A DNA stretch of 20,000 nt, taken from IMG/VR virus record IMGVR_UViG_2838022645_000001. One strand, 5' to 3'. The translations under genes were made by a program, and so were the position numbers. Position 1 is the first letter of the stretch, and every line of letters begins with the position of its first letter. This DNA is from an uncultured virus (IMG/VR IMGVR_UViG_2838022645_000001) (lineage: Duplodnaviria > Heunggongvirae > Uroviricota > Caudoviricetes). Shown here piece after piece: positions 7,997-19,535 of this stretch. The notes under the pieces are model-generated. The model did no database searches and was not told the origin of the DNA. It saw only the letters and a list, made by a program, of their open reading frames with translations.

Positions 7997-9391
7997 ATGT
8001 CGACTCTGCAACTTGGTAGGGTGCCAAATCAGGCGCCCATTTCCATACCGGCGCGAGGTTACCGGCTTGGCGTCATCGGCACGTCCCTCGTGCAGCATAA
8101 TGAGAACGGCACATTTAGCCCGAAGATCTCCCACTGGTCACGCGGCTGGTTGTCTTGGGCGCGCTTCTATGCTGGCCGCCTATTCTCCTGCCCGATTTGG
8201 TGGGATAGCACTGTTTATGTCGGTTGGGAGCCTTCAGGAGTAGGTGGCGCGACGCGCTATTTTCAGGGCCTCAATGCAGGTGTCAGCGGCCAGACCTATG
8301 CGCAGATCGAAGCGCGCAAAGCGTATCTCGCTACCAAAGTTGATTGCGACATCATCATTATCGATGACGGCACCAATGACATGGGGCCCCAAACGAAAGA
8401 AAGCATCCAAGCCGCTCGCGAGGCGCTTGCAAGCTACTACCTGTCTTTCGGAAAAATCGTCATCCTCATGCCCATACTTGCGCGCGGCGTGGGTTCATGG
8501 ACTGGGGGCGGTCCAGAAAGGGCGAAGGCACATTGGATTAATCGCAAGACGCGCGAGTTTTGCCGCACCAAGAAGAATTGTTATTTCTTTGACTGGAACC
8601 TGTATTGGGCTGATTTAGCCTCAACCTACGGTGAACCGAAGAGCGGCTATTCCCCAGACTCCATCCACTTTAACCCGAAGGGTGGGGAATCGGTCGGATA
8701 TGGTTTGGTCCAGTTTCTCGCTACGATTTTGCCAGCCGCACAGAACTTCACGGCATATCCTGATGACTTGTTCGACGCCACGAACAACCCGCTGGGCAAC
8801 GTGTTGACGAATCCGCTCTGCCTCGGCACGACCGGGACGCTCGGTACTGGCGCTACAGGTTCAGTTGCGAATGGAATGCGGGTCGAGCGCTCATCAGGAG
8901 GATCGTCGGTCGTTGCATCAAAGGAAGCGAGATCGGATGGTCTCGGTGAATATGAGGTCATGACATTCACGCCGGCGGGTACGGCGGAAGACCTATTTTA
9001 CTTCCGCACCAACGCAGCTAACACGGCCCTGACGGGTGCCGTGGCTGGCGAGTGGTTCCAAGCCCGCTGCAAGGTTGAGACGAACAACTATGCAGGATTT
9101 ACCGGGGTTTCGTTGCTTCTGAATGATCAGGGCTCAACCTCGATGTCGGCTTACGCGATGGAGCCGTTTAACAGCGGTTCAGCCAACGAAAAATGGGCCG
9201 CACTCGCGCGCGCTGGTTATCTCGAAACGCCTGCGTTCCAAATCGCTGACGCTGCTCCTAACGTTCGTTGGCGGTTGGAAATTCGCTTTGACGCCAATGT
9301 GGCCGGTACGCCGATCGTCAAGTGCGGCGAAGTCGAGTTGCGTAAGGTGTCCGATCCGCGCACTCTCTTGCACTGGTCCGCGCCAGCGTAA
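7997..9391 (+). CDS. SGNH/GDSL-family esterase with a C-terminal beta-sandwich (carbohydrate-binding-like) domain
   Basis: ATG 7997 after GGAGG; block I 'GTSLV', block II 'NAGVSG', block III 'GTND', block V 'DSIH'; 464 aa. Confidence 0.82.
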   Translation: MSTLQLGRVPNQAPISIPARGYRLGVIGTSLVQHNENGTFSPKISHWSRGWLSWARFYAGRLFSCPIWWDSTVYVGWEPSGVGGATRYFQGLNAGVSGQTYAQIEARKAYLATKVDCDIIIIDDGTNDMGPQTKESIQAAREALASYYLSFGKIVILMPILARGVGSWTGGGPERAKAHWINRKTREFCRTKKNCYFFDWNLYWADLASTYGEPKSGYSPDSIHFNPKGGESVGYGLVQFLATILPAAQNFTAYPDDLFDATNNPLGNVLTNPLCLGTTGTLGTGATGSVANGMRVERSSGGSSVVASKEARSDGLGEYEVMTFTPAGTAEDLFYFRTNAANTALTGAVAGEWFQARCKVETNNYAGFTGVSLLLNDQGSTSMSAYAMEPFNSGSANEKWAALARAGYLETPAFQIADAAPNVRWRLEIRFDANVAGTPIVKCGEVELRKVSDPRTLLHWSAPA

Positions 9392-9781: not shown

Positions 9782-10797
9782 ATGACAAAGCCGCCTCGCA
9801 AGCCTTCCCAGCACTTGCTGGGTGACGCGGATGCACCACTCCGCCGCCGGCGCCGCCGGCGGCGCGATCCCGCCCAATCTCAACTGCTTCTCGACCCCAT
9901 GCCGGCGCGCGTCGCTCCTTGTCTCGCGCTCCTCAAGCCGCGGCCGCCGAAAGGTCCGCAATGGGCATATGAAGTAAAATGGGACGGCTACCGCCTGGCC
10001 ATCCACATTGAACCTGGCGGCGTCCGCATTCTGACGCGCGGCGGCCATAACTGGACGGACCGTTTTCCCGCCATCGCCGCCCAGGCAAAGCGTCTTCCTG
10101 TTTCGACGGCGATACTGGACGGTGAGGCCGTCGTGTTTGACGAACTGGGCCGGTCGGATTTCGGCAAGCTTCAGCAGTCGCTCGGTGGCAAGGGCGGAAA
10201 GCGGATATCGTTGGAGTCGGTCTTAATGGTCTTCGATGTCCTCTATCTCGCCGGCGCCATCTCCTCGAGGGGATAGTGCCGCCCGGCGGGGAGGAAGCTA
10301 TTCGCCTCTCCGAGGAGATCGAAGCGGACGGTGAAACGCTTCTGCGCATCGCCTGCGAGCATGGGCTTGAAGGCATCATCGCCAAGGATCGGAACAGCAC
10401 CTATCGCGGCGGTAGGTACGGCGACTGGCTGAAGATCAAATGCATCCAGAGCGACGGCTTTGCCATCATTGGCTATCAGAAATCTAGCTCGGCGTTCGGA
10501 AATATCGGCGCGCTGCTGCTTGCGGCGCGAAAGGACGGGAAATTGGTCTACGTCGGATCGGTCGGGACGGGCTTTAAGGCAGACCAGGCAATGCAGCTGC
10601 GTGCAACCATGGACAAGATGAAGGTGTCAGCGCCAGCGGTTAGGTACACTGGCCGGCGCAAGAACCTGATATGGATTAAGCCCACTCTGGTCGCCGAGAT
10701 CGAGTATCGATCCTGGACGCATGACGGCAAGCTACGGCATCCGTCATATAAGGGTCTGCGGGATCCAGCGGATAATTCTGCCATCTATGAATTTTAG
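9782..10797 (+). pseudogene. ligD: ATP-dependent DNA ligase (LigD ligase-domain type), frameshifted near 10250
   Basis: Motifs I (EVKWDGYR), III (LDGE) and IIIa (VFDVL) lie in ORF 9782-10276. Motifs IV (EGIIAK), V (WLKIK) and VI (LRHPSYKG) lie in a different frame that ends at 10797. The usual 'DG.DL' segment after FD.L is missing. Confidence 0.85.
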
Positions 10798-11611: not shown

Positions 11612-11751
11612 TGCGGGCGCTCTTCACCTTTTTCACTGTAACGTGCGGGCTTCTATCTGTTGCGTTTTCAAATGCCGACATGCGCGGCGGAACATTGTTC
11701 ATGGTGTTCTTTTGCGCGCTGTTCGCGTCAATGAGGGAGGCAACCATATGA
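11611..11751 (+). CDS. 46-aa two-TM peptide (not in the ORF track)
   Basis: MRALFTFFTVTCGLLSVAFSNADMRGGTLFMVFFCALFASMREATI. TGATG overlap with the protease stop, ATGA overlap with the next start, GGAGG upstream. Confidence 0.65.
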   Translation: MRALFTFFTVTCGLLSVAFSNADMRGGTLFMVFFCALFASMREATI

Positions 11752-12290
11752 CGGCCCTCTCGAGATACATTGTCGCCAATGTCTGCTGGATTTCGGTCAT
11801 GGTGTGGGCGGCGGTCCTGGGCTTCGTCCAGATGGCATTCCTCGCCGACGCAGCGCACATAAGCTACGTCATCACGGCATTGTTCATCTTCGGCCTGTAT
11901 TCGACAACAGCGCGCATCATCGAAGTCGATAGGCTTTCGACGGCGCTCTCCAAGAAGAGAATTTGGGTCGCCGGCGAGCGGCGCGCCTTGGCCAAGGGCG
12001 CAAGGTTGCTTGCTATCCGCATCGAACATGTTGTCGACGTCATCGAGGGCCTCGTCCTCATCGGCCTGATCGGCAACGCCATAGGGTTTTTCATGGCCTT
12101 CAGGCATGTCGACATATCTGCGATGAAGTCCAGTGACGGAGTTATGGCGAATGCTGCTCATCTCATGGCTGGGACGGGCACAGCGTTCGGTGCAACCATT
12201 GTCGGATGCGTTCTCGCTCTCTGGACGATCCAGAATGGCCGAATGCTGAAGACGGCTGCCGCGATATACGCCGAGGATATCGCGGAATGA
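11748..12290 (+). CDS. MotA/TolQ/ExbB proton-channel family membrane protein
   Basis: ATG 11748 after GGAGG; 180 aa, about four TM helices; 'LIGLIGNAIGFFMAF' and 'AGTGTAFGATIVG' match the two conserved C-terminal helices (GL.GT..G...AF; G...A..TT..G). Confidence 0.75.
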   Translation: MTALSRYIVANVCWISVMVWAAVLGFVQMAFLADAAHISYVITALFIFGLYSTTARIIEVDRLSTALSKKRIWVAGERRALAKGARLLAIRIEHVVDVIEGLVLIGLIGNAIGFFMAFRHVDISAMKSSDGVMANAAHLMAGTGTAFGATIVGCVLALWTIQNGRMLKTAAAIYAEDIAE

Positions 12291-12844
12291 GCAGCGGCAA
12301 GGCAACTTCAATAGGCTTCAGAGACGTTCTTCTGTGCCTAAATGCTGTCCTCGGTGCGCTTGTTCTCATCGTTCTTTCGGCAATCAATCCGGCGGCCAAA
12401 GATGATCCCGCCCAGCTGCCCGGCAACCTCGTCGCCAGCATCGCCTGGCCAGCTGGCAGCACTGACGTCGACTTGTGGGTCCAGTATGGCGATGATCTAG
12501 CCGTCGGCTACAGCCATCGCTCCGATCGCGTTTGGAGTCTTCTTCGCGACGATCTGGGCACCGCGAATGACGATACACCTTTGAACGCGGAATCCGCCTT
12601 CACACGCGGCCTGCCTGATGGCGAGTATGCCATCAACGTTCGCTGCTTCGGCTGCGCAAAGGTGCCGGTGCCAGTGTCCGTCGAGGTGCGGCTGGCCGAA
12701 GGTGGCGTCGTATGGCGCGCCACGGTCGACCTACTCAAGGACAAGCAGGAGCGGACGGCGATCCGGTTTCGTATGGCTGGCGGGCAGGTCGTGCCTGGTT
12801 CGGCGTCGAGTGTGTTCAAGCAGATGAAGAGAGGAGAGGGGTGA
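12287..12844 (+). CDS. Single-TM protein with ExbD/MotB-like TM Asp and a YfaP/DUF2135-like extracytoplasmic domain
   Basis: ATGA overlap with the upstream gene; 'FRDVLL' at the start of the TM; 'W.....DVDLWV', 'RDDLG', 'N.E....RG...GEY.INV'; 185 aa. Confidence 0.65.
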   Translation: MSSGKATSIGFRDVLLCLNAVLGALVLIVLSAINPAAKDDPAQLPGNLVASIAWPAGSTDVDLWVQYGDDLAVGYSHRSDRVWSLLRDDLGTANDDTPLNAESAFTRGLPDGEYAINVRCFGCAKVPVPVSVEVRLAEGGVVWRATVDLLKDKQERTAIRFRMAGGQVVPGSASSVFKQMKRGEG

Positions 12845-13104
12845 TGGAAATAGTGATCGCAGTAGCAATTTGGCTTGGCATTGGCGCGGCTGGCTCCGCA
12901 CTTAGTGTCGAGTTCTTCTGGCGTCGTGGGTCATTCCCTATGGACGTCGATCTGACAGACGTCGGATTCTTCTCGGTGATGGCGATACTCGGGCCAATCA
13001 ACCTGATCATCGGATTTCTTTTCGCACTCGGATGGCTATTTCGGAAAGCTCTCAAGTCGTCTGGAATCGACCCGCAAGCAAAAATCCTCAAGGCGCGCCG
13101 CTAA
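12844..13104 (+). CDS. Two-TM membrane protein
   Basis: ATG 12844 (TGATG overlap), AGGAG RBS; 86 aa, two hydrophobic helices, basic C-terminal tail. Confidence 0.7.
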   Translation: MEIVIAVAIWLGIGAAGSALSVEFFWRRGSFPMDVDLTDVGFFSVMAILGPINLIIGFLFALGWLFRKALKSSGIDPQAKILKARR

Positions 13105-13541
13105 TGACCCCCGCCATCACCCTATGGCTAGCCTTCGTGCTGGCCGCCGGCATTATTTGCTGGACAGCAAATAACAAGCGGCAAGCCGTCGCCTTCCTGC
13201 TTGTCGCACTGGCAACCGCACCCGCAGCATTCATCACGCTCGGCCACGCTGCGCCATGGCAGCCCGCCAAAGGCCACTACACCGTGCTTGGCGCGCGCAT
13301 CGATGTCGACGAGGCAATCTATGTCCTACTCGACGGCAAGCCGGAGCCGCGCTTCTACAAGCTGCCGTATTCCGCCCAGCAGGCGAACAGTCTGCAGAAC
13401 GCGCTTGACACCGCCGAGGCCAACGGCACTGGCGTCGGCATGACAATGGACGGCGATGCGGCAGGCTTTGCCGAAGAGGGCGGCCAGCGAGGCGGATCCG
13501 AAGTGAAGCAGGCTGAGCCGCAAGCGATTATTGGAGGGTAG
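13104..13541 (+). CDS. Membrane protein with two N-terminal TMs and a soluble 'PRFYKLPYS' domain
   Basis: ATG 13104 (TAATG overlap); 145 aa. Confidence 0.7.
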   Translation: MTPAITLWLAFVLAAGIICWTANNKRQAVAFLLVALATAPAAFITLGHAAPWQPAKGHYTVLGARIDVDEAIYVLLDGKPEPRFYKLPYSAQQANSLQNALDTAEANGTGVGMTMDGDAAGFAEEGGQRGGSEVKQAEPQAIIGG

Positions 13542-13870: not shown

Positions 13871-15121
13871 ATGCCCACACCTCGCCTCAGTGACGAACTC
13901 GCCAAGGAAGCCGCCGACGCGTTCGAAGCGCTCGGCAACAAATCGCAGGCCGCCGAACTGCTCGGCCTGCCGCGCAACACGTTCAATTCGCGCCTGAAGA
14001 TCGCCGCCGAGCGCGGCATGTGCGGCACGAAGCCGGTTCTGCCGGGGTTCCGCATCGCGCAGATCAGCAACACGCCGAACGGCGACTATATCAAGCAGCG
14101 GCCGGAAGCTGGCGCCGAATTCGACATCCCAGCCGGGCATACCATCAAGGGCGTCTCTGCGCTCGTCGACGCGGACGGCCGGACTATCCAGCAATGGATC
14201 AAGACCCGCAACGAATACGCGCCGCAAGACGTCGCCGCCATTCTCAAGGAAGCGTTCGTCGATGTGCCGCCGGCTGAGCCTAGAGCACTCAATACCGTCC
14301 CGACCGACGACCTTCTGACGCTCACGCCCCTTGCGGATTTCCACGTCGGTTTGTTCGCATGGCATCGCGAGACAGGCGCCAATTGGGATCTATCGATCGC
14401 CGAACGGGTAATCGGCGGGGCGCTCGACGAGTTGATCGCCAGAACGCCACCGAGCGGCCATGCCATCGTATTGGGTGGCGGCGACCTGCTCCACTCGGAT
14501 AGCAATGAGAACAAGACGGCAAAGTCTGGCAACGTCCTGCAGGTCGACGGGCGTTACCAGAAGGTGCTGATGACGGCGTGCCGACTGGTCGTCCGCGCGA
14601 TCGACGCCAACCTCGCTAGGCACGGCCATGTTACTGTCCGCATCTTGCCGGGCAATCATGACGAACACGCCTCGGTGGCCGTCGCCTACTTCCTGCTGGC
14701 CTGGTATCGCAATGAGCCGCGCGTCACCGTCGACGTGGATCCGTCGCTGTTCTTCTGGTTCCGCTTCGGGCGCGTCTTATTGGGGGCAACGCACGGCCAC
14801 ACGGTCAAGCTCAAGGATATGGCCAGCATCATGGCCCACCGCCGCGCCGAGGACTGGGGCGCTACCGTGCATCGATTCATTCACGGCTTCCACATCCACC
14901 ACTCGAGCAAGTATGCGACGGAGGGCAACGGCGTGATTTCGGAATCGCACCAGACACCGACGCCGCAGGATGCGTGGCATTGGGGCGCAGGCTTCCTGTC
15001 TGGCCGCTCGATGCAGTCGATTAGCTACCATCGCGAGTTTGGTGAAGTCTCGCGTGTGCGGGTCGCCATGATGGATGCGGCAAACGATAACGAGCCGGCA
15101 GAGCAGAGGAGGGCGGCGTGA
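13871..15121 (+). CDS. Fis-type HTH fused to a calcineurin-like metallophosphoesterase
   Basis: ATG 13871 after GGAG; 'GNKSQAAELLGLPRNTFNSRL' HTH; motifs DFHVG, GGDLLH, GNHD, HGH, FHIHH; 416 aa. Confidence 0.85.
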   Translation: MPTPRLSDELAKEAADAFEALGNKSQAAELLGLPRNTFNSRLKIAAERGMCGTKPVLPGFRIAQISNTPNGDYIKQRPEAGAEFDIPAGHTIKGVSALVDADGRTIQQWIKTRNEYAPQDVAAILKEAFVDVPPAEPRALNTVPTDDLLTLTPLADFHVGLFAWHRETGANWDLSIAERVIGGALDELIARTPPSGHAIVLGGGDLLHSDSNENKTAKSGNVLQVDGRYQKVLMTACRLVVRAIDANLARHGHVTVRILPGNHDEHASVAVAYFLLAWYRNEPRVTVDVDPSLFFWFRFGRVLLGATHGHTVKLKDMASIMAHRRAEDWGATVHRFIHGFHIHHSSKYATEGNGVISESHQTPTPQDAWHWGAGFLSGRSMQSISYHREFGEVSRVRVAMMDAANDNEPAEQRRAA

Positions 15122-15351
15122 GCAAAGCGAAGTTTGCGGCACTTGATGCGGATGGTTGGCTTGAGTTCACGGCCAACAAATCACCCAAATGCCCTCACTG
15201 CGGCGATGACTTCCACATTGCCGACAACGAGGCTTGGTTTCTGTACGACGAAAACGACACCCACGAGGTCGAGTGTCCATCGTGCGAAGAGACCTTCCAA
15301 GTGAGCAGCAGCGCTTCTTGGTGCTTTAGCACCGACGAGCAGGAACGATAA
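15118..15351 (+). CDS. Small zinc-ribbon protein
   Basis: CPHC and CPSC pairs; GTGA overlap, GGAGG RBS. Confidence 0.75.
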   Translation: MSKAKFAALDADGWLEFTANKSPKCPHCGDDFHIADNEAWFLYDENDTHEVECPSCEETFQVSSSASWCFSTDEQER

Positions 15352-15410
15352 CCACCCCTGCCGCCGACCACCAATCGGCGGCAACCAATACCACCACAGA
15401 GGAGACTGAA

Positions 15411-15860
15411 ATGCTGAACAGAAGCGCAAACGCTAAAGCGTATCATGACGCGGGCCTCGTGCCCGCCAACGACAACTATTCCCACGCATCCGCCATCAAC
15501 CTGTTTGCGGCCGACTGCCACGCAGCAAGCCGCAAAGCCGGCTGGTGCACGAACCTCGCGACTGGGCGTGCATTGGACAGAAACGTGCCAGAAATGATGA
15601 TGCTGATCGTGAGCGAAATCAGCGAAGCCATGGAGGGCTATCGCAAATCTACCGGCGGCAAGGTCAAGATGGACGACAAGCTGCCGCACAGGCCAAACGC
15701 TGAAGTCGAACTGGCCGATGCCATGATCCGCATCGGCGATCTGGCAACTTTCCTTGGCTTCGACCTGGGCGGCGCGATCGTCGAGAAGATGGCATTCAAC
15801 GCCAACCGCGAAGATCACAAGATCGAGAACCGCAAGGCCGCTGGCGGGAAGGCGTTTTGA
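15411..15860 (+). CDS. MazG-like nucleoside triphosphate pyrophosphohydrolase
   Basis: 'LIVSEISEAMEGYRK' and 'EVELADAMIRIGDL' (ExxE...ExxD) motifs; AGGAG RBS. Confidence 0.82.
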   Translation: MLNRSANAKAYHDAGLVPANDNYSHASAINLFAADCHAASRKAGWCTNLATGRALDRNVPEMMMLIVSEISEAMEGYRKSTGGKVKMDDKLPHRPNAEVELADAMIRIGDLATFLGFDLGGAIVEKMAFNANREDHKIENRKAAGGKAF

Positions 15861-16786
15861 TGACCATGAACACGGCAAGAGAAGCGGCGATGCTGGCCGC
15901 TATACCGAATCCGCCAGAACAGTATAACCCCGAACCGCTCATGGTCGAAGGCCTTGGCGCCGTTCCTGTGGTGCTGCCGAAGTACTCGCCGGCGAATGAC
16001 AACGTCGAGGGTGGCAAGCGTTACCACAGCGGCGGTCTTGTTGGCGGGCCTGGCGGTGATGTGGCGCCAATCATGAAGATCGACCACGTCATCCCGCGCG
16101 CGCAGTACGAGGCCATCATGGAGCGCGGCCAGTACGTCGGATTGCGTCGACACACAGACATTGGCGCGCGAGTCGTGGCGGCTGTCGAAAAGGAGATTGC
16201 CGCCAGCCGTCCCTTGTCCTCGGACAGCGGACATCCCGCCCGAACCGGCGACTTCATGCAGACGGCGACCGGCCGCAAGTTTTGGCCCCTCGACCCGCGG
16301 AGCGAAGAAGTCTTCATCGAGGACATCGCGCACTCACTGAGCCTGCAATGCCGCTACGCCGGCCACTGCCTGCGCTTCTACAGCGTCGCCGAGCATTGCG
16401 TACTCATGGCCCGCAAGCTTCGCTGGGAAGGCGTGGACGTGGCTCTGTGGGCGCTGCTGCACGATGCGGCGGAAGCCTACACCGTTGACGTTCCGCGCCC
16501 GCTCAAGCGCCACCTAGTTGGCTACAAGGAAGCCGAGGCGAAAGTCATGGCTGCGATCGCCGATCGGTTCGGCCTGGCGGCGGAAATGCCTGCCGTTGTG
16601 CATGATGCCGACAACCGCATCATTGCCGACGAGCTCGTCAACCTCGTGCCGATGGAGTGGCACGCGCGCTATGCGGGCCAGGAACTGGGCGTGACGCTGC
16701 GCTACTGGTCGCCGGAGAAGGCGCGGGAAGAGTTCATGGCGACGTTTGACGCGCTGATGGATTGCAGGGCGAGGGGGATGGCGTGA
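15860..16786 (+). CDS. HD-domain phosphohydrolase (YfbR/YfdR-like 5'-deoxynucleotidase) with a long N-terminal extension
   Basis: 'IEDIAHSLS..CRYAGH', 'YSVAEHC', 'ALLHDAAEAY..D'; catalytic domain starts near residue 130; ATG 15860 by TGATG overlap. Confidence 0.85.
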   Translation: MTMNTAREAAMLAAIPNPPEQYNPEPLMVEGLGAVPVVLPKYSPANDNVEGGKRYHSGGLVGGPGGDVAPIMKIDHVIPRAQYEAIMERGQYVGLRRHTDIGARVVAAVEKEIAASRPLSSDSGHPARTGDFMQTATGRKFWPLDPRSEEVFIEDIAHSLSLQCRYAGHCLRFYSVAEHCVLMARKLRWEGVDVALWALLHDAAEAYTVDVPRPLKRHLVGYKEAEAKVMAAIADRFGLAAEMPAVVHDADNRIIADELVNLVPMEWHARYAGQELGVTLRYWSPEKAREEFMATFDALMDCRARGMA

Positions 16787-17837: not shown

Positions 17838-18124
17838 CAACAATGATCGAGCGGGTGGCGCGGGCCATAGCAAAAGAAAACAATACGGACGCTGCATTTG
17901 ATCTCCCTTGGGAGTTCTTTATTGGACAAGCCCGCGCCGTCCTTGAAGAGATACGCGAGCCGTCGGCGGCGCAACTGGCCGCCGCTGAGGAGATTGTCGT
18001 CGGCTATGACGACTTCGCATGCGGCGATGGCAATGTCTATCTCGCCTACCCAGAGTACTACGACAAGGCCAAGCACGTTTGGCAGTCGCTGATAGACGCA
18101 GCACTCAAGGAGGAAACACCATGA
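17834..18124 (+). CDS. Phage hypothetical protein
   Basis: 96 aa; 'MIERVARAIA...AR.....REP...W...IDAAL' pattern; ATGA overlaps at both ends. Confidence 0.7.
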   Translation: MTTMIERVARAIAKENNTDAAFDLPWEFFIGQARAVLEEIREPSAAQLAAAEEIVVGYDDFACGDGNVYLAYPEYYDKAKHVWQSLIDAALKEETP

Positions 18125-18813
18125 CCGAGAACCAAGTACCAGCCTGGACGCCCGCCGGCGAGCTCACCGCAGTGCCGGCCTCCAATGACAACGTTCCTTC
18201 CGAATTGCGCGCGCTTGGCGCGGCAATAGGGAAGCATGAAAGTAGCGACAGCCCACAACAGAATATTAGTGCGGCCAACGATAACTTCCCGCCCGTCGTC
18301 GCATTCACCGGCCAGGCTGGCGCCGGCAAGTCTACGGCCACCCGCTACCTCGTCGAGCAGCACGACTATACACTCGTCAAGTTCGCCGGGCCGCTCAAGG
18401 ATATGATGCGGGCTATTGGTTTGGCGGAGGATCAGATCGAAGGCGACCTGAAAGAAACGCCGACGCGGCTACTGCAAGGAAAAACACCGCGGCACGCGAT
18501 GCAGGCCCTTGGTACGGAGTGGGGCAGGGATCTGATCGGCAAGGATTTCTGGACATTCTTGTGGGAGCATCGCGCTCTTCAGGTCATTGACGCCGGCGGC
18601 CGCGTCGTTACAGACGACTGCCGCTTTCCGAACGAAGCGCAGCTTATCCGCCGACTGGGCGGAGACATCTACAAGATCGCTGGCCGTGGCGGCATTGCTG
18701 GTGACCACGTCAGCGAGCGCGGCTGCGGTGATCAGGATCTGGTGATTGCGAACGCTGGCGCGGTCGCAGAGTTGCACGGCAAGATCGAGGAGGCGCTGCG
18801 GCGGTATGGGTGA
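18121..18813 (+). CDS. Deoxynucleoside monophosphate kinase (T4 gp1-like)
   Basis: ATG 18121 after AAGGAGG; P-loop GQAGAGKST, 'FAGPLK', 'TPRHAMQALGTEWGR', 'DDCRFPNE'; about 58-aa N-terminal extension. Confidence 0.88.
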   Translation: MTENQVPAWTPAGELTAVPASNDNVPSELRALGAAIGKHESSDSPQQNISAANDNFPPVVAFTGQAGAGKSTATRYLVEQHDYTLVKFAGPLKDMMRAIGLAEDQIEGDLKETPTRLLQGKTPRHAMQALGTEWGRDLIGKDFWTFLWEHRALQVIDAGGRVVTDDCRFPNEAQLIRRLGGDIYKIAGRGGIAGDHVSERGCGDQDLVIANAGAVAELHGKIEEALRRYG

Positions 18814-19495: not shown

Positions 19496-19535
19496 ATAAC
19501 CACCAAACCCAACCACCACAGAGAAGGAGACTGAA

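Follow-up and report, generated by a model that had tools for sequence, protein, structure and literature searches.

A C-terminal tail resembling the host tmRNA tag, and a recurring ANDN motif, in a 16-3-like prophage: a candidate SspB docking site and ClpX degron

Results

A phosphoesterase-like gene with an unstructured C-terminal tail

The DNA analysed here (the window, 20,000 nucleotides, G000:C9:45231-65230) is the right part of a complete 66-kb 16-3-like prophage in a host of the Rhizobium family. The prophage is bounded by a 57-bp direct repeat (C9:268-324 and 66212-66268) located in tRNA-Thr, and its helicase is 82% identical to the helicase of phage 16-3. The locus comprises the following features (the evidence is given in brackets):

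13871-15121 (+): gene encoding a 416-aa protein with HTH and calcineurin-like metallophosphoesterase domains, the carrier of the tail (ORF, Pfam, PHROG, alignment, AlphaFold, fold match)
15077-15121 (+): C-terminal tail AANDNEPAEQRRAA-stop, residues 403-416, predicted to be unstructured (translation, AlphaFold)
15080-15091 (+): ANDN codons, putative SspB docking core (sequence comparison with the host tmRNA)
15107-15112 (+): AGGAGG, the Arg-Arg codons of the tail and probably also the ribosome-binding site for the gene that follows (sequence)
15113-15121 (+): Ala-Ala-stop, putative ClpX degron, overlapping the GTG with which the following gene starts (sequence)
15118-15351 (+): zinc-ribbon-like ORF of 77 aa, translationally coupled to the tail (below the Pfam cut-offs)

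The carrier ORF starts with the ATG at 13871 and its product ends in AANDNEPAEQRRAA. The N-terminus of the protein matches HTH_8 of Pfam, and residues 8-400 match PHROG 704, annotated as 'DNA repair exonuclease'. The DxH, GD, GNHD, HGH and HxH metal-binding motifs that mark calcineurin-like enzymes are all present, and the corresponding ligands (D156 and H158, G204 and D205, G261-D264, H308 and G309, H341 and H343) are invariant in a 94-row alignment. Fold matches pointed to Mre11, SbcD and 5'-nucleotidase, with an identity of 8-14%; the exonuclease activity is putative, being taken from the annotation. The best phage matches of the carrier are encoded by Sinorhizobium phage AP-16-3 (78% identity) and RHph_X2_25 (75%), p044 of phage 16-3 being more distant (37%).

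AlphaFold modelling (mean pLDDT 79) places the last strand at residues 391-399 and gives pLDDT values below 50 for residues 403-416. Thus the 14-residue tail behind the last strand of the catalytic domain, which had been claimed from the sequence alone, is real, and the model predicts an accessible, unstructured C-terminus. Sequence search found no solved structure for the carrier. The claimed overlap between the codons of the last four residues and a ribosome-binding site was also correct: AGGAGG is followed by five bases and then by the GTG at 15118, which overlaps the stop codon of the carrier gene. A scan for promoters and terminators gave no signal exceeding that of shuffled controls.

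The tail shares the two invariant modules of the host-family tmRNA tag

The host genome contains a single, permuted tmRNA gene, whose tag is (A)ANDNYAEARLAA, 13 residues including the charged Ala. The ssrA gene is directly followed by sspB (G000:C32:40914-41848), whose product has the structural relatives 2NYS, 2QAS and 2QAZ, and clpX is also present. For comparison, tmRNA loci were collected from the family of the host (30 of the 31 found, the host's own included). The head ANDN and the terminal Ala-Ala were invariant in all 30 tags; 23 were identical to the host tag, and in five ANDN was followed directly by Asn instead of an aromatic residue.

The tail begins with the same A-ANDN, and the nine residues following ANDN fall within the native spacing (8-9 in the 30 tags). 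The terminal Ala-Ala also agrees with the tags, a match confounded by the ribosome-binding site overlap. In the middle part the tail has Glu and Arg where the native tag has Tyr and Leu. If a one-residue insertion is allowed, 10 of 13 residues agree with the host tag; among the middle identities Arg at -4 alone is common in homologues (59/89), and this residue falls on the AGG codons within the ribosome-binding site. The tail is encoded within the ORF rather than added co-translationally from the tmRNA template.

The sequence-only reading had described the tail as a full-length mimic of the Caulobacter tag. The Caulobacter sequence on which it relied (AANDNFAEEFAVAA) was quoted correctly (PMC9393093), and the ANDN head and the Ala-Ala end stood up to comparison. 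The full-length claim did not: the host tag has 13 residues, the homologous tails have 7-11 residues after ANDN, and Tyr and Leu are missing. Against the host's own tag, likewise, the invariant ANDN, the Ala-Ala and the spacing agreed, and the length and the Tyr and Leu of the middle part did not. Since ANDN and Ala-Ala are invariant in 30/30 family tags, the tail is better described as mimicking two modules than as a copy of the whole Caulobacter tag.

ANDN recurs throughout the prophage proteome

Approximate gene calling yielded 97 prophage and 6,409 host genes. There were 17 ANDN sites in 16 of the 97 called prophage proteins (0.15 expected), versus 15 sites in the 6,409 host proteins, a 112-fold enrichment (Poisson p 3e-29). 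In 1000 within-protein shuffles the mean was 0.20 and the maximum 3, and ANDN was the top-ranked tetrapeptide of the prophage. When all six frames of the 6.49-Mb genome were searched, 49 sites were found, 19 of them inside the 66-kb prophage and all 19 in frame on the coding strand. The two prophage sites not accounted for by called genes lie in frame in uncalled ORFs, one coding for a DUF559 protein and the other in the position of an excisionase. Because the latter did not align with 16-3 Xis, its assignment is positional only.

The tail had been presented as a property of one protein, a view that could not be maintained: the motif is phage-wide and is often internal or N-terminal. Its carriers include three methyltransferases, a helicase, an SSB-like protein, a sigma-like protein, a pyrophosphatase, an HD phosphatase, a dNMP kinase, the portal and the tape measure protein; the integrase and both repressor-like proteins have neither NDN nor Ala-Ala ends. 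Most sites lie outside family matches or at their edge. Counted by module, [AS]NDN occurs in 10/33 early, 4/22 right-arm, 3/32 head-tail-lysis and 1/11 left genes. A profile built from 61 sites (the prophage, 16-3 and the first 50 kb of AP-16-3) reads [AP]-[AS]-N-D-N, with free flanks. Seven prophage proteins end in ANDN-x(4-12)-AA, an ending found in none of the 6,409 called host proteins; 10 of the 17 called sites are not part of such a tail. No second prophage that could have served as control was found in the host by the terminase and portal families used.

Within the window, three further ANDN sites and one ASNDN in the neighbourhood of the carrier had escaped the earlier reading; a second ASNDN lies farther upstream:

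15465-15476 (+): ANDN at residue 19 of a pyrophosphatase (15411-15860), just ahead of the PHROG match
15992-16003 (+): ANDN at residue 45 of an HD-family 5'-dNMP phosphatase (15860-16786), in an N-terminal extension not covered by the PHROG match (103-305)
18178-18192 (+): ASNDN variant in the N-terminal extension of a dNMP kinase (18121-18813)
18271-18285 (+): AANDN in the dNMP kinase, just ahead of the P-loop
4621-4635 (+): ASNDN within a 701-aa beta-helix tail protein, probably incidental

Some carriers outside the window have features of their own. The portal protein (G000:C9:32827-34077) ends in ANDN...AA in this prophage as well as in 16-3 and AP-16-3, and is thus a virion protein with a putative degron. 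The helicase ends in ANDN...EDWEDIPF and a small DUF6511 protein in GDIPF (G000:C9:16472-18199 and 21094-21360); the 16-3 helicase has a similar end. We take these DIPF ends to resemble the SSB C-terminal motif. Among the other prophage genes (G000:C9:12004-13065) are one for a DNA polymerase III beta clamp and, in tandem, two for sigma-70-like proteins, of which one has ANDN at residue 4.

The motif is conserved as peptide

The ANDN codons of the tail match the start of the tmRNA reading frame in 11 of 12 bases; the rest of the tail DNA shows no likeness. At 29 prophage sites the sequence lay within two mismatches of the opening 12 bases of the host tmRNA reading frame; 17 of these are synonymous ANDN sites, and three are identical to the tmRNA. 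Third codon positions held 34 of the 46 mismatches, the likeness ended after the 12 bases (9/27 thereafter), and the bases upstream of the sites were unlike the tmRNA resume context. No tmRNA or other Rfam RNA was found in the window. A tmRNA relic or a phage tmRNA gene was rejected on the grounds that none is present in the window and that the DNA likeness stops after 12 bases, and a DNA-level repeat was rejected by the reading frame and the synonymous pattern.

The Ala-Ala end is not explained by gene layout alone

Ala-Ala ends were found in 20/97 prophage and 302/6,409 host proteins. Where the stop overlaps the next start and an RBS-like word is present, the proportions were 9/30 in the prophage and 42/530 in the host, so gene layout alone is not enough to explain the Ala-Ala. 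Within the prophage, Ala-Ala ends occurred in 11 of the 22 NDN proteins versus 9 of the 75 others, and they were coupled to C-terminal NDN (7/9 versus 13/88 genes, p 1.7e-4, the nine including the carrier); for genes overlapping the next start the figures were 6/7 with and 10/44 without C-terminal NDN. In three genomic homologues AA or VA is kept before TAA or TAG stops that do not overlap a start codon. The overlap/RBS control and these homologues weaken the view that the ribosome-binding site is the sole cause of the Ala-Ala. Ala-Ala without ANDN is nevertheless common, being present in 17/31 close homologues lacking ANDN and in 31/150 distant ones.

Viral contigs were scanned for NDN codons followed by an Ala-Ala-stop after a free gap of 12-27 bases, which gave 80 loci (79 distinct) among at least 122 stretches. 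Twenty of the matches were compared with Rfam, and the 13 that proved to be tmRNA genes were dropped. In the remaining set, ANDN was in frame with the Ala-Ala-stop in 20/24 cases and other NDN in 12/42 (p 2.6e-5; the contigs may be related). The thirteen tmRNA genes, with ANDN-type tags, may be phage-borne or lie in host flanks included in the viral collection.

Distribution among homologues and phages

Close homologues of the carrier were taken as the best 120 of 1,769 found (62-100% identity), and a tail was scored as ANDN in the last 40 residues. By this definition 89/120 had the tail and 66/120 had both ANDN and Ala-Ala; of the 89 tails 66 ended in AA and 18 in VA. Only 4/150 distant representatives had the tail, all four ending in AA or VA. 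Among 11 genomic loci, the tail was present in seven (Shinella, three Agrobacterium, two Brucella, Tianweitania) and absent from those of Rhodoplanes, Bosea, Hoeflea and Bradyrhizobium.

Across 17 named phages the tail tracked the genome-wide density of ANDN. Tail-bearing phages had many sites (AP-16-3, 17 in the 50 kb examined; 16-3, 18; RHph_X2_25, 20; RHph_TM3_3_14B, 18; NV1.1.1, 20), and tail-less ones had hardly any (RHph_X2_26, 0; RHph_Y60, 1; Mae-JY35, 1; R4C, V18, RDJL6 and pCB2047-A, 0 each). The expectation that homologues outside the Alphaproteobacteria lack the tail was borne out by all five gammaproteobacterial phage homologues. Conservation within the Alphaproteobacteria was partial: it holds for 89/120 close homologues, but six alphaproteobacterial phages, and one labelled as a Microcystis phage, are without the tail. 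The homologue of RHph_X2_26 is tail-less despite 60% identity and a Sinorhizobium host. A general trait of alphaproteobacterial phages was therefore rejected; the tail follows ANDN-rich, 16-3-like phages.

Mimicry of the start of their own tag (AND and then N, D, E or K) was sought in five gammaproteobacterial phage records and in three more (phages of Xanthomonas, Pseudomonas, Vibrio, Aeromonas, Escherichia and Salmonella), and no enrichment was seen (0, 1, 6 in 145 kb, 0 and 1 sites, and 3, 1 and 2 sites per record). Counts of [AP]ANDN went up to 27 among 40 relatives of the host, in two genomes of the same genus; the one of them that was inspected has the motif clustered in the same way. 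Another ANDN-rich region lies in a genome of that genus (G044:C14, C57; 22 sites in 55 kb), many of its sites having distant Ala-Ala ends. None of the five ANDN-rich phages encodes an SspB of its own.

Trees of the enzyme cores were built with the tails cut off. On 79 rows (quick tree) the distribution of the tail needed 9 changes, and a single tail-bearing clade was rejected with p-AU 2e-8 on a 24-row subset picked after the first tree and analysed with a simpler model; gain and loss are not distinguishable by the tree. The 16-3 enzyme groups with enzymes of tail-less Rhizobium, Escherichia and Salmonella phages. Near-identical tails are found on enzyme cores 37% and 72% identical, which suggests that recombination keeps the 3' end. 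The simplest reading of these comparisons is that different versions of the enzyme gain or keep the tail when residing within a 16-3-like genome.

Other features of the window and the prophage

Ahead of their start codons, six prophage sites share a leader resembling ACCACCACAG(A)GGAG, with one mismatch allowed (window 15390-15404, 19512-19526 and 5883; C9:806 on the minus strand, 10750 and 18245); the frequency in the remainder of the genome predicts 0.27 such sites in 66 kb. An ATP-dependent DNA ligase is encoded by two consecutive ORFs (window 9782-10797, +), the first with the adenylation domain and the second with its end and the C-terminal domain, apparently as a result of a frameshift. 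Behind a trypsin-like protease there is a run of membrane-protein-like ORFs without Pfam matches (window 11748-13541, +), reminiscent of a TolQ/ExbD-type set. A GDSL-like esterase gene lies behind the lysis cassette (window 7997-9391, +).

Discussion

We consider it probable, though well short of certain, that the tail of the carrier enzyme is an SspB docking site combined with a ClpX degron, and that it is one instance of the motif [AP]-[AS]-N-D-N of 16-3-like phages. The best explanation of the comparisons is that 16-3-like temperate phages of Rhizobiales place this motif in roughly one in five of their proteins, at flexible ends and in linkers, and that the motif is a copy of the head of the host tmRNA tag, to which the adaptor binds. 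Such pieces of the tag would probably let the host protease set the lifetime of the marked phage proteins.

In E.coli the head of the tag binds SspB and its end binds ClpX, the two modules being separable, and a head lacking the Ala-Ala still supports degradation if the extension following it is long enough (PMC8512704, PMC9963277). In Caulobacter, deletion of sspB slows the degradation of a tagged protein (PMC9393093). The mechanism envisaged starts from the findings that the motif is selected as a peptide and lies outside folded domains, and that on the carrier Ala-Ala stands at native spacing behind it. By analogy with this biochemistry, host SspB would bind the ANDN head and tether the protein to the N-domain of ClpX, the terminal Ala-Ala would enter the ClpX pore, and the protein would be degraded by ClpXP. 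In the last and weakest step, early and middle lytic proteins (nucleotide-metabolism enzymes, methyltransferases, sigma-like factor, helicase, excisionase-position protein) would be short-lived, and the motif-free repressors and integrase would persist. The presence of the motif in the portal and tape measure proteins fits poorly with a simple timer of early proteins.

Several features count against this reading. E.coli SspB binds seven residues including Tyr (PMC8512704, PMC9963277), and the phage motif has no aromatic residue at that place. The native Leu before the Ala-Ala is replaced, the Ala-Ala itself is confounded by the ribosome-binding site and the stop-start overlap, the helicase ends in DIPF, and more than half of the called sites are outside ANDN...AA tails. 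Alternatively, ANDN might bind SspB mainly without degradation, as a tether for remodelling or localization, as a shield against ClpAP or by collective titration of the adaptor away from tagged proteins of the host. Many sites are N-terminal or internal, the helicase and the SSB-like protein lack Ala-Ala, and the portal is tailed both here and in 16-3; in E.coli, moreover, the head alone is reported to give binding without degradation (PMC8512704), and SspB to block recognition by ClpAP (PMC9963277). We nevertheless regard non-degradative binding as unlikely, in view of the tight coupling of C-terminal ANDN to AA or VA at native spacing and of the excess of Ala-Ala ends among NDN proteins (11/22 versus 9/75). 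A decoy would require one abundant protein, not about twenty.

It is quite unlikely, in our judgement, that ANDN docks another host or phage factor, the likeness to the tag being coincidental and the Ala-Ala reflecting the geometry of the ribosome-binding site together with an SspB-independent ClpX degron. Only four to five residues match, there is no aromatic residue, Ala-Ala ends without ANDN exist, and the motif is absent altogether from other phages of the same hosts. However, the motif is identical to the head that never varies in the tags of the host family, and it stands at the native distance from the Ala-Ala; the excess of Ala-Ala persists in genes with overlap and RBS (9/30 phage versus 42/530 host), AA or VA is kept before TAA and TAG stops that do not overlap a start, and no enrichment is seen in the seven gammaproteobacterial phages tested. 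An element acting as nucleic acid (an insertion derived from tmRNA, a boundary of module-swapping recombination or a signal in the mRNA that happens to read ANDN) might be suspected from the three prophage sites identical to the first 12 coding bases of the tmRNA and from the near-identical tails on cores 37% and 72% identical. It is made very improbable by the 19/19 sites in frame on the coding strand with mismatches clustering at third positions, by the end of the likeness after 12 bases, by the lack of tmRNA or Rfam RNA in the window and by upstream sequences unlike the tmRNA resume context. A single four-residue match is expected in any genome, and the host proteins themselves contain 15, yet the probability of chance is negligible given the 112-fold enrichment, the shuffle maximum of 3 against 17, and the same ANDN density, seen also in the records of five other phages and in a further prophage region.

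Beyond a docking site and degron on one enzyme, a wider scheme of adaptor-gated proteolysis can be put forward only tentatively. About twenty lytic-side proteins of 16-3-like phages would carry the SspB head, new enzymes would be fitted with it, and the free SspB-ClpXP capacity, falling as the products of ribosome rescue accumulate, would set lifetimes and feed into the lysis-lysogeny and induction decisions. This scheme is possible, if doubtful. The copying of the adaptor-binding head by a phage lineage onto a fifth of its proteins, on unrelated enzyme cores, would in itself amount to mimicry of a host quality-control signal at the scale of the proteome. It is directly testable in the classic system of phage 16-3 and Sinorhizobium meliloti, and it would give dozens of natural variants for mapping the needs of alphaproteobacterial SspB, as well as tunable degrons for Rhizobiales.

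No recurring ANDN in phage proteins was found in the literature searched, subscription journals (with much of the 16-3 literature) and supplements being outside its scope; PMC5422525 gave general background only. Known already are phage-encoded ssrA-like degrons on one or two regulators. The present analysis adds the comparison of 30 tags, the control for the ribosome-binding site, the frame test on viral contigs, the restriction to a phage lineage and the non-monophyly of the tail-bearing cores.

Comparison with known systems

With the native alphaproteobacterial tmRNA tag (for Caulobacter see PMC9393093) the phage tail shares the ANDN head, the terminal Ala-Ala, a spacing of 7-11 residues around the native 8-9 and a flexible C-terminus, in a host having ssrA-sspB and clpX. 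It differs in being encoded by the gene rather than supplied by trans-translation, in its variable middle part devoid of the native Tyr/Phe and Leu, in the additional placement of the head at N-termini and in linkers, and in its presence in about twenty proteins of one phage. Among PHROG 704 and Mre11-SbcD-5'-nucleotidase-like enzymes, 16-3 p044 included, the fold and the metal-binding motifs are common property, whereas the tail is missing in most distant members (present in 4/150).

RseA(1-108) of E.coli is described as a natural substrate delivered to ClpXP by SspB and ending in VAA (PMC8138137). Like the tail, its Ala-Ala end is genome-encoded, and RseA uses SspB; according to the same source it is, however, a host protein whose end is exposed by cleavage and whose SspB site is unlike ssrA, a single substrate rather than a recurring motif. 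In mycobacteriophage BPs and the cluster P phages, ssrA-like C-terminal tags on the integrase and the repressor take part in integration-dependent immunity (PMC9262239, PMC9635641). There, too, genes of temperate phages encode ssrA-like degrons for a host protease, but as described in these papers only an LAA-like end is involved, on two lysogeny proteins, and it is removed by integration. In the 16-3-like prophage the integrase and repressors are untagged and att lies outside the repressor genes, unlike the arrangement in integration-dependent immunity; instead it is the adaptor-binding head that appears to be copied, and on lytic-side proteins.
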